A stretch of 64,000 nt of DNA from contig JBEVLE010000636.1 of the NCBI GenBank assembly GCA_040509335.1, positions 3,164-67,163 on the forward strand. The letters are read 5' to 3'. This DNA comes from Longimicrobiaceae bacterium. Lineage in GTDB: Bacteria; Gemmatimonadota; Gemmatimonadetes; Longimicrobiales; Longimicrobiaceae. Shown piece after piece: positions 60,001 to 63,000 of the stretch. Under the pieces are notes generated by a model, which saw only the letters and a program-made list of their open reading frames with translations, was not told where the DNA came from and did no database searches. Made by a program: the position numbers and the translations under genes. Each line of letters begins with the position of its first letter. Positions within the stretch are counted from its first letter, which is position 1.

Positions 60001-63000
60001 ACCCCCCGCCCTCCGGGCTGCGGCTGGAGCGCCTGCCGCTGGAAACGCGGGCGACGCTCTTCGACCTGGAGCTGGAGCTGCGGGAGGACGGCGAGGAGCT
60101 GTGGGGCGGCGTTCGCTTCCGCACCGACCTGTTCGATCCGGCCACGGTTGAGCGGCTCGCCGCGCACTACGGGGTGCTGCTCGCGGCGGTCTGCGCCGCG
60201 CCGGGGGAGCGCCTGTCGGGACTCCCCGTCCTCCCCGCGGCCGAGCAGGCCCGGCTGCTCGCCTTCGGCGGCGATTCCGCACCGCGGGCGCCGGGCGGCA
60301 TCCCGGTGCACCTCCGGTTCGCCGCGCAGGCCGGCCGCGCGCCCGGCGCGGCCGCCGTCCTCGTCGGGAGCGAGTCGCTGTCCTACGCCGAGCTGGACGC
60401 GCGCGCGGACGCCCTCTCGCGCCGGCTGCGCGAGCGCGGCGTGGGCCGGGGCGCCACCGTCGGCGGGTGCGTGGAGCGCGGGCCCGGCGTGACGGTCTCC
60501 ATGCTGGCGGTGTGGAAGGCGGGAGGCGTGTACCTCCCGCTGGACCCCGCGTACCCGGCCGAGCGCCTGGCCCTGCTGCTGCGCGACTCGGGCGCGGTGG
60601 CGGTGGTCGCGGAACCCGGCACGGCGGCGTCGCTGCCCGCTTTCGGGGGGGCGGTCGTGCTGTGCGACGGGACCCCCCTCCCCCCGGCCCCCTCCCCCGC
60701 AAGGGGGGAGGGGGAGCACGACGATGCCGAGACCGAGGGCGCACTTTCGCACTCTCGCACTTTCGCACTTTCGCACTCGCCGTCCCCCGACGACCTGGCG
60801 TACCTCATCTACACCTCCGGCTCCACGGGGACGCCAAAGGCGGTGATGGTGGAGCACGGGCAGCTCGAGCACGCGCTCCTCGGGTCGCTGGACGTGCTGG
60901 GCCTCGCGCCGGGCGACGTGGTGGCGGCGCTCGCCTCGCCGGCCTTCGACATCTCGCTGCTGGAGCTGGCGGCGCCGCTGCTCGCCGGCGCGGCCGTGCG
61001 GATCGTCCCGCGCGAGCTGGCGCGCGACCCCGAGGCGCTGGTGGACGCGTCCGCCGACGTGACGGTGCTGCACGCCGTCCCCGCGCTGATGCGGCAGGTG
61101 GTGGAGACCGTGCGCGCCGGCCGCGAGCTCCCGGCGCTGCGGCTCCTGCTGGTGGGCGGCGACAGCGTGCCGCCCGACCTGCTGCGCGACATGCGCCGCG
61201 TCCTCCCCGCGGCCGGGGCGCGCGTGCTCTACGGCCCCACCGAGGCGACCATCGTCTGCGCCTCGTACGCCGTTCCCGCGGCGGGCGAGGTCGCGGGGCA
61301 CCCGCTGGGGCGTCCGCTCCCCGGGGTGCGGCTGCGCGTGTGCGGGCCGCGCGGCGAGCCGTGTCCCATCGGCGTCCCCGGCGAGCTGTGGATCTCCGGC
61401 GCGGGCGTCGCGCGCGGCTACCTGGGCCGCCCGGAGCTCACGGCGGACAAGTTCGTCCCGGCGGACGGGGAGCGGGCCTACCGCAGCGGAGACCGCGTGC
61501 GCTGGCGCGCCGACGGGGTGCTGGAGTTCCTGGGGCGGACGGACGCGCAGGTCAAGGTGCGGGGCTTCCGCATCGAGCCCGGCGAGATCGAGGCCGTGCT
61601 CGCCGCGCACCCCGGGGTGCGCGAGGCGCTGGTGATCGTCCGCGAGGACGCCCCCGGCGACCGGCGGCTGGTGGCCTACGTGGTCCCCGCGGCCGGCGGG
61701 ACCGCGCCGGCCGGGCTGGGGGAGCACCTGCGCACCCGCCTCCCGGAGCACATGGTGCCCTCCGCCGTGGTGGCGCTGGACGCCTTCCCGCTGGGCCGCA
61801 ACGGCAAGGTCGATCCCGCCGCGCTCCCCGCCCCGGAGCCGGCCGCCGCGCGCGGGCGGGCCGCCCCGCGCACCCCCACCGAGGAGGTGGTGGCCGCCGT
61901 CTGGGCCGAGGTGCTCCGCGTGGAGCGCGTGGGCACGGGCGACGACTTCTTCGAGCTGGGCGGCCACTCGCTCCTCGCCACGCAGGTGGTGTCGCGGGTG
62001 CGGAGCGCCCTGGGGTGCGAGCTGCCGCTGCGGGCCGTCTTCGAGGCGCCCACCGTGGCGGGGCTGGCGCGCCGCGTGGACCGGCTGCGCTCCGGCGCGC
62101 CCGCCGGCGACCAGGCCCCGCCGCTGGTCCCGCTGCCGCGCGACGGGTCGCCGCTGCCGGCGTCGTTCGCGCAGCAGCGGCTGTGGATCATCGACCGGCT
62201 GGAGCCGGGGAGCACCGCCTACAACATGCCCCTGGCGCTGCGGCTGCGCGGGCCGCTGGATGCGCGCGTGCTGGGTCGCGCCCTCGCCGAGGTGGCGCGC
62301 CGGCACGAGGTGCTGCGCACGGTCTTCGGCGAGGCCGGCGGCGCGCCCTTCCAGGTGGTGCGCCCCGCGGGCGGGCCGGCACTGCGCGCCGCCGACCTGT
62401 CGCGTCTCGCGCCCGGCGAGCGGGCGCGCGAAGCGGACCGCCTGGTGCCGCGGCTGGCGGGGCGCCCCTTCGACCTGGCCGCCGGCCCGCTCTTCCGCCC
62501 GGCGCTGCTGCGGCTGGACGACGCGGAGCACGTGCTGGTGCTGGACATGCACCACGTCGTCGCGGACGGGTGGAGCATGGGGGTGCTCTTCGGCGAAGTG
62601 GCCGCTCTGTACGAAGCGTTCGCGCGCGGCGCACCGTCGCCGCTGCCGGAGCTGCCGGTGCAGTACGCCGACTACGCCGCCTGGCAGCGGGCGTGGCTGA
62701 CGGACGCCACGCTGGAGCGGCAGCTGGCGTGGTGGCGCGAGCGGCTGGCGGGGGCGCCTCCCCTGCTCGAGCTGCCCACGGACCGTCCCCGGCCGCCGCA
62801 CGCGGGCGCGCGCGCCGCCCGCGCCGAGCGCGTGCTCCCCCCGGCGGCGGCCACGCGGGTGCGCGCGCTGGCGCGCCGCGGCGGCGCCACGCCGTTCATG
62901 GCGCTCCTCGCCGTGCTGGACCTGCTCCTGGCGCGCTGGTCGGGCGAGGACGACGTGGTGGTGGGCACCCCCGTCGCCGGGCGGACCCGCAGGGAAACGG

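Follow-up and report, generated by a model that had tools for sequence, protein, structure and literature searches.

Normally extragenic repeat families in an adenylation-domain loop of a Longimicrobiaceae nonribosomal peptide synthetase

The locus and its composite insert

The window examined here is a 64,000-nucleotide (nt) stretch of DNA from a Longimicrobiaceae bacterium of the phylum Gemmatimonadota (assembly GCA_040509335.1, contig JBEVLE010000636.1, positions 3,164 to 67,163). It has a GC content of 77% and is nearly all coding sequence for nonribosomal peptide synthetases (NRPSs), on the plus strand. The adenylation (A) domain of module 5 of one of these genes carries, between its core motifs A2 and A3, a 120-nt composite insert at 60666-60780. 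This insert is made up of a hairpin element (H), a spacer and an array of octamers (O), all in frame, and is translated as a loop of about 40 residues rich in Pro, Ser, Gly and His; the translation is as given in the original prediction, which had been made from the sequence alone. H, O and a third family (S), found in three further A2-A3 loops of the window, are normally extragenic repeats, since their copies elsewhere lie mostly outside genes. Comparison with other genomes shows the A2-A3 loop to be a hot spot of repeat gain, replacement and loss.

The window contains two exact copies, and no others, of a 49-nt block (GACGGGACCCCCCTCCCCCCGGCCCCCTCCCCCGCAAGGGGGGAGGGGG), at 31291-31339 and 60666-60714, with no such pair expected from 100 shuffles. 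Both copies begin at codon position 1 and encode the same 16 amino acid (AA) peptide. It had been predicted that 60666-60723 repeats the element at 31291 in the same frame with three mismatches; the repeat and its frame hold, and the mismatches number two (56 of 58 nt identical). Tandem Repeats Finder returned a period-8 repeat at 60740-60777 (4.8 copies, 93% matches, score 69), which confirms the 8-nt array predicted at 60741-60780, 17 nt after the hairpin. From 60741 the five units read GCACTTTC, GCACTCTC, GCACTTTC, GCACTTTC and GCACTCGC. The octamer array has no second occurrence within the window.

The reading frame and the A3 motif are exactly restored after the 120-nt composite. Across the insert the GC content at third codon positions (GC3) comes to 0.80 (0.63 for O by itself), compared with 0.97 for the remainder of the open reading frame (ORF) (Fisher p = 4e-5), and this atypical value may be counted as a sign that the insert is of non-coding origin. 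No convincing target-site duplication, which together with terminal inverted repeats would characterise a miniature inverted-repeat transposable element (MITE), was found at the boundaries of H, the empty site being known at the protein level only. A CGACG motif lies on both sides of the copy at 60666 and is not common to loci L062 or L098 (L numbers denote loci and P numbers proteins from the comparisons described below). The coordinates of the features are collected in Table 1.

Table 1. Repeat elements and host-gene features in the 64,000-nt window
Feature	Position	Strand	Remarks
Host NRPS gene	46266..64000, runs past window end	+	At least 5911 codons, six A domains, single ORF
A2 core GGVYLPLD of host A domain	60522..60545	+	Motif scan
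H copy 2	60669..60723	+	GC palindrome like a repetitive extragenic palindrome (REP), C tract 60673-60685 upstream, tail GAGCACGACG encoding EHD(D)
H hairpin core	60688..60714	+	Arms 60688-60698 (CCCCCTCCCCC) and 60704-60714 (GGGGGAGGGGG); loop GCAAG
H-O spacer	60724..60740	+	17 nt, diverged between copies
O array	60741..60780	+	Five 8-nt units, GCACTTTC/GCACTCTC/.../GCACTCGC; encodes 13 AA
A3 core YTSGSTG	60810..60830	+	Immediately 3' of insert; motif scan
H copy 1	31291..31348	+	A2-A3 loop of non-paralogous module in upstream NRPS gene; without O array
S element	37648..37690 (array 37659-37688)	+	GCTGTTGCAGG + (CTGTTCC)x4.3, another A2-A3 loop
S element	54303..54345 (array 54314-54343)	+	A2-A3 loop, host-gene module 3; absent from orthologue
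S element, CTGTCCC variant	63939..63981 (array 63950-63979)	+	A2-A3 loop, host-gene module 6

The host gene and its adenylation domain

The frame that contains position 60666 is open from 46224 to the end of the window. By motif scan, the A-domain motifs lie in this same frame, and the ATG at 46266 aligns to residue 1 of the orthologous protein P0128. A listed ORF at 46193..60151 (4652 AA) was rejected as the gene, the A motifs being in another frame; this wrong frame is open because of the 77% GC content of the window.

The host domain is an NRPS A domain with the fold of the ANL superfamily, in which A2 (GGxYVPLD) and A3 (YTSGSTGxPKG) follow in order. It matches LgrA (6mfy; E-value 1e-179) in an alignment that crosses the A2-A3 region with gaps, and the top Foldseek matches of the modelled domain are likewise NRPS A domains. 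Its nearest homologues all belong to Longimicrobiaceae or Longimicrobium of the Gemmatimonadota. With the G of GGxY(V/L)PLD and the Y of YTSGSTG as end points, A2 and A3 are 96 codons apart. The window has 15 other complete A domains, in which this distance is 73-81 codons; the excess is about 20 codons over the mode and 23 over module 1 of coding sequence CDS1. The predicted size of the expansion therefore holds (about 20-23 codons); the absolute lengths of 84 and 60 codons given for it refer to other anchor points and are 96 and 73 here.

Modelling of the A domain with its insert, which the original prediction had proposed, gave an AlphaFold2 structure with a mean predicted local distance difference test (pLDDT) score of 90.7. 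The insert (residues ~143-182) has block scores of 54, 48 and 58 with almost no secondary structure, and is flanked by strands at residues 138-141 (VVLC) and 186-192 (LAYLIYT). In the model it is a disordered loop within a confidently folded A domain.

Extragenic copies of the repeats

H has an 11-bp stem, a 5-nt loop and an RNA minimum free energy of -28.9 kcal/mol, and corresponds to a REP hairpin in being a short palindrome of 20-40 nt that forms a stable hairpin. A genome collection was scanned with its 23-nt core. Among the matches listed there were more than 119 genome loci, distributed over the Alphaproteobacteria (many of them Bradyrhizobium), Planctomycetota, Chloroflexi, Nitrospirae, Bacteroidota and Gemmatimonadota, with the extended consensus ACCCCCCTCCCCAACCCTCCCCCGCAAGGGGGGAGGGAGC. 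Of these copies 122 could be evaluated, and 118 proved extragenic, the other four lying in coding-like ORFs. Inverted doublets of H 70-140 nt apart were common among the same matches in other bacteria and phyla; the window has none. The full Gemmatimonadota form, identical to the window copy, is extragenic at L098:69-123, about 10 nt after a stop codon, and at L104:2851-2905, in an intergenic region rich in variant hairpins. H follows stop codons in L098, L104, L062 and L242, and the extragenic copies of L098 and L116 are on chromosome OY970303.1.

Together with the upstream C tract, the H core forms a near-identical 40-nt consensus in at least six phyla (L001-L119). The inverted doublets often enclose a spacer of 20-30 nt (L025:2741-2845, L005:2521-2636, L064:3008-3103), and between them the two C tracts of H give a mirror repeat, CCCCCTCCC-CAA-CCCTCCCCC; third-strand pairing of its first arm with the hairpin is in principle conceivable.

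No Rfam family reached its gathering score in the window, and only sub-threshold miRNA-like matches were obtained on H doublets elsewhere. A full-text literature search with the H, O and S strings returned nothing relevant, and at 77% GC nothing could be learnt from scanning the window for inverted repeats in general.

For O, a metagenome scan with GCACTTTCGCACTYYCGCAC gave, among the matches listed, more than 120 loci with 126 arrays of 3-13 units. None of these 126 adjoins an A3 motif; for 25 of them a partner array in inverted orientation is located no more than 150 nt away. By a GC3-periodicity test, which recovers three of four known in-frame controls, one of 104 arrays lies inside a coding-like ORF. 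In L062 a reversed O array stands just after the stop codon of an NRPS gene, in the orientation opposite to that of the neighbouring hairpin. O is an extragenic microsatellite typical of (soil) Gemmatimonadota genomes. That H and O form a fixed composite outside genes was considered and rejected, an H-like hairpin being found within 150 nt of none of the 126 extragenic arrays listed.

By crude gene calls the extragenic O arrays (L120-L241) are polar: in the GCACTTTC orientation the 3' side adjoins a gene boundary and the 5' side rarely does so. On the 3' side the boundary is either a sense start codon, in many cases at a distance of 0-30 nt, or the point where an antisense gene ends (L147, L155, L207, L217, L225). 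About one fifth of the arrays are inverted pairs around a short loop. O arrays are also present on two contigs classed as viral, L240 (IMGVR_UViG_3300028648_000006) and L241, the former apparently being the same 42,842-nt contig as metagenome locus L153.

The S family has the form GCAGTTGCAGG(CTGTTCC)4CT. The window copies have arrays of about 4.3 units behind the conserved 5' flank GCAGTTGCAGG and are read as a 14 AA peptide. Outside genes, S occurs directly 5' of an ATG at L104:845-885, and 13 occurrences were counted in 794 kb of metagenome loci.

A further hairpin, W (...PQNWGKVASLSEPGGG...; in full CCCTCCCCC-N5-GGGGGAGGG TGGCGGC...GCCGCC GGGTGGGGGCC), is extragenic in L098, L104, L116 and L242, and is also translated in NRPS A2-A3 loops. 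It begins a repeated block of about 190 nt that ends in a stem with compensatory changes between copies (GACTCCGT...ACGGAG versus GCGGAGT...ACTCCGC). Two Gemmatimonadota genomes contain several copies of this block per 8-kb locus (L098:215-420, 5319-5346; L104:2990-3260; L116:470-690 on the minus strand, 2498-2525, 5897-5924), and it has no Rfam match. Other arrays with periods of about 6-8 nt were noticed in L145, L148, L183, L211 and L212 (TCCTAAG-like, CGATCCT, GCACTCAA, CAGCACC and TTTCAGCA), which suggests that many microsatellite families coexist in the genomes of these metagenome loci.

Copies in the A2-A3 loops of other modules and genomes

Five assemblies contributed about 150 kb of NRPS DNA, in which some 19 copies of H, O or S were found inside genes. 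All of them are in the A2-A3 loop, a stretch amounting to about 2% of the coding DNA. Every in-gene copy of O and S in these assemblies is in the sense orientation and has the same length and the same unit pattern (about five units for O and four for S), whereas length and orientation are variable outside genes. In a set of 120 homologues the most frequent A2-A3 distances are 76-77 codons; some 20 of the loops exceed this, the longest with 145 codons, and contain H, O or S alone, H with O, H with S, or other hairpins such as W. Many loops of normal length are relic-like, with EHD(D/G)AA... in the absence of a hairpin or with degraded ...LSHS... stretches.

The loop of module 4 in the host gene (57480-57572) starts with DGTP, as H does, and may be a decayed H; it is conserved in the orthologue, with no indel between the two. 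Longer loops of 108-142 codons in Longimicrobiaceae hold two or three hairpins in a row (L011:1613-1940; L244:4000-4425 and 17220-17551), one of which is H-like in the opposite orientation (CCCCTCCCTCGCTTGCGGGGGAGGGG).

At least ten other, non-orthologous A domains contain the combination of H, a spacer of about 17 nt and O, with array length and unit pattern unchanged (L011, L062, L242, P0064, P0009, three in P0121, P0122, P0124 and module 6 of P0128). Between copies 53-55 of the 55 nt of H and 40-41 of the 41 nt of O are identical, as against 7-12 of 16 nt in the spacer and 54-92% in the upstream flank. H copy 2 in particular has 53-55 of 55 nt in common with the window copy at 31291 and with those of L011 and L062, from which its flanks diverge, and O matches the arrays of L011 and L062 at 40 of 41 nt. 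The host domains themselves are no closer than others. The modules with A3 at 31384 and 60810 are 68% identical upstream and 73% downstream, no more than A domains of the window generally have in common, and the MAG270 A domains that contain the composite (L011, L062) are likewise no closer to the window module than this background. Module duplication was on this ground rejected as the source of the shared 49 nt. The original prediction of two repeat families stacked in one A2-A3 loop stands, and the two independent landings that it implied are unlikely, since the same cassette recurs elsewhere.

A phmmer search of 1.84 billion representative proteins with the 40 AA insert gave nine matches. 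Five of these are NRPSs with the motif in A2-A3 loops, and another is a spurious ORF that extends across a long O array. An earlier word-indexed protein search with the 47 AA loop peptide had returned no candidates, a limit of the index, as phmmer later found the NRPS loops.

Comparison with orthologues

P0128 (6370 AA, encoded on a contig of 8,423,711 nt) is colinear with the window gene and 89.7% identical over 5936 columns. Its loop in module 5 has a normal length of 76 codons and is without the 14 hairpin codons and six O codons; the H-tail residues (RHDG) and a shorter, degenerate O-like stretch are retained. A long orthologous loop devoid of repeat character, which had been named as grounds for abandoning the original prediction, was not what was found. 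Relative to this ~90%-identical orthologue the insert is lineage-specific. In module 3 the window gene has S and P0128 is without it; the patch of this module from after A2 to A3 is 75% identical in the pair versus ~90% elsewhere. In module 6, S in the window is replaced by an H variant with O in P0128. Of the 54 gap positions between the two proteins, 40 are in A2-A3 loops.

A second pair, P0113 (L242) and P0118 (L245), is 80% identical and encoded in syntenic clusters of NRPS and polyketide synthase (PKS) genes. At the same loop position one has an H variant with O and the other has H with S.

Origin of the insert

The explanation that we favour, and consider probable though by no means assured, is that the insert is passenger repeat DNA which a permissive loop accommodates, and which decays after short-patch conversion has carried it from module to module. 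Each repeat type would have been seeded into an A2-A3 loop only rarely. It would then have spread between modules as a cassette through short-patch gene conversion, for which the simplest mechanism would be anchoring in the conserved nucleotide cores of A2 and A3 or in H itself, and copies would later have been lost by hairpin-promoted deletion and point decay. The insert would need no function; it may persist because the A2-A3 loop tolerates almost any in-frame sequence. Arrival of the composite as a single cassette, with a different module as its source, is most likely, given that H-spacer-O recurs in so many domains while extragenic O, at 3-13 units, has no H nearby. That O and S have a fixed length, pattern and orientation in the loops, and that H-spacer-O is recurrent, argues for rare seeding followed by copying between modules, and the hairpin-less loops that retain an H tail point to hairpin-promoted deletion. 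The locally replaced patch of module 3 would fit short-patch conversion. As to whether the loop is a preferred or a permissive site, the alternative raised in the original prediction, it is indeed recurrently occupied, and the evidence leans towards a permissive loop and copying between modules.

Several points weigh against this explanation. H and O are far better conserved than the 16-nt spacer, whereas a neutral passenger that came as one cassette should diverge evenly; to account for this, repeated re-homogenisation, spread in the very recent past, or selection at the level of DNA or RNA sequence is needed. All in-gene copies lie in one loop though NRPSs have other linkers, which could mean targeting. 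The orthologues were compared at the protein level, where breakpoints are not visible, and the extragenic counts of H and O describe other genomes and metagenome loci rather than the source genome's own copies. No transposase or other seeding mechanism was identified, no search aimed at transposases having been made.

If an enzyme or a structure-directed process recognised the A2-A3 interval, the copies would be independent landings. The presence of ~19 of 19 in-gene copies in a loop of ~2% of the coding DNA, the occurrence of at least four element types there, and orthologues with O versus S at the same position all favour such active site-specific insertion. We nevertheless regard it as unlikely. 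The extragenic copies have no flank in common with the loop copies, and O and S arrays that are fixed in length, pattern and orientation in the loops, as against 3-13 units outside genes, fit copying between loops better than repeated new insertion. Moreover, no transposase turned up, although none was searched for, and according to Di Nocera et al. (2013, PMC3733652) REPs of the CGTC type have no dedicated transposase. Selection on the nucleotide sequence, with H and O serving as signals in RNA or DNA (for pausing, processing, stabilisation or protein binding) in a coding sequence of more than 18 kb, is likewise improbable, even if the near-invariance of H (53-55/55) and O (40-41/41) extends to synonymous sites while the spacer (7-12/16) and flanks diverge. 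Such a role would also agree with the persistence of rare A/T-ending codons against a GC3 of 0.97, the polarity of extragenic O with its 3' side at gene boundaries, the very stable H stem (-28.9 kcal/mol) and the conservation of the H core and mirror-repeated C tract across bacterial phyla. Yet the 90%-identical orthologue lacks H at module 5, many loops hold decayed relics, only some modules bear any element, and homogenisation by conversion from other copies explains the conservation without function.

The two identical 49-nt copies, in the same frame, position and direct orientation 29 kb apart, could also serve as portable homology patches for in-frame recombination of modules at A2-A3, by which the peptide products would diversify faster, and the replaced A2-A3 block in module 3 of the orthologue (75% versus ~90% identity) is in keeping with this. 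To this we attach little probability, because identity between modules with an element in common does not rise abruptly on either flank of that element, homology is available from the A2 and A3 cores even where repeats are absent, and no repeat-bounded recombinant module was observed. Less probable still is that the encoded peptide is itself a selected feature of the protein, such as a flexible docking or regulatory loop. The 16 AA and 13 AA peptides do recur in many A domains of several genomes, but the orthologous module is without the peptide, AlphaFold2 gives it no structure, its codon usage is atypical, the same DNA is extragenic in both orientations, and O and S interchange at the same position in orthologues. 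An assembly artefact, or a phase-variable frameshift switch through slippage of the non-triplet array, is hardly credible. Repeats are classic sites of mis-assembly, the gain or loss of one 7- or 8-nt unit shifts the frame, and the extragenic arrays vary in length; however, frame and A3 motif are exactly restored after 120 nt, the same composite is present in four independent assemblies, and the array has only 4-5 units and is of invariant length in all the loop copies seen.

Significance and comparison with known systems

The A2-A3 loop is a clear case of translated extragenic repeats, 7- and 8-nt microsatellites included, in which gain, replacement and decay are visible between orthologues of 80-90% identity. 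The loop accepts from 20 to about 70 extra residues of arbitrary sequence with the domain kept, and is a candidate site at which tags or other sequences might be inserted; NRPS modules appear to exchange the A2-A3 interval as a small cassette. The O and S arrays of Gemmatimonadota and the cross-phylum GC hairpin are families found neither in the literature searched nor in Rfam. Were selection rather than homogenisation behind the conservation of H and O, coding loops would carry nucleic-acid signals.

Interrupted adenylation domains, in which auxiliary domains are placed between A-domain core motifs such as A8 and A9, show that large insertions are tolerated. Those inserts are folded and catalytic, unlike the unstructured, repeat-derived sequence between A2 and A3. 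Contingency loci similarly have a non-triplet tandem repeat inside a coding sequence; here there are 4-5 units, identical in length in every loop copy seen (about five for O, about four for S), and no on/off variants were seen among them, in contrast to phase-variable loci. Short tandemly repeated repetitive (STRR) heptamers were reportedly described by Mazel and colleagues in 1990 from heterocystous cyanobacteria. Like O, (GCACTTTC)n, and S, (CTGTTCC)n, they are dispersed extragenic arrays of 7-8-nt units with several variants per genome. The present arrays differ in phylum and in units, in being translated in NRPS loops as well, in the tendency of the 3' side to adjoin gene boundaries, and in some inverted array pairs.

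H is comparable to the REP and REPIN elements mobilised by RAYT transposases in being a short GC-rich palindrome; in the other genomes scanned it is mostly extragenic, often just after stop codons, and in many bacteria it forms inverted doublets. REPs are normally lineage-specific, unlike H with its near-identical 40-nt consensus across phyla. The REPs CGTC-1 to -4 have stems of 8-9 bp with A-T in the first two positions, a loop of 4-5 nt and a CCA tail (PMC3733652). An assignment of H to the GTAG- or CGTC-tagged REPs was rejected, as there is no GTAG by the stem and no CCA tail, and the stem is of 11 bp, all G/C with one T-A pair. The reverse strand of H carries CGTCGTG five nt from the stem.

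Rickettsia palindromic elements (RPEs) are said to have been described by Ogata and colleagues in 2000. Intragenic REPs are on record at about the same site in recB of two Xanthomonas species (PMC3733652). Both are mostly extragenic palindromes that also occur in frame in intact genes, to which they add 20-80 residues, and in the window, as in an RPE-like insertion, the ORF is intact, extragenic copies exist and the orthologue P0128 is without the hairpin. The in-gene copies described here differ in being confined to one homologous loop of a many-copy domain, a loop shared by several unrelated families, non-triplet tandem arrays among them; their content turns over between orthologues of 80-90% identity, and the host belongs to the Gemmatimonadota, with 77% GC. 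Intragenic REPs and the RPEs of Rickettsia are the nearest precedent (PMC3733652), and what is new is the restriction to a single loop, its co-occupation by several families, the translation of 7- and 8-nt microsatellites and the turnover between close orthologues.

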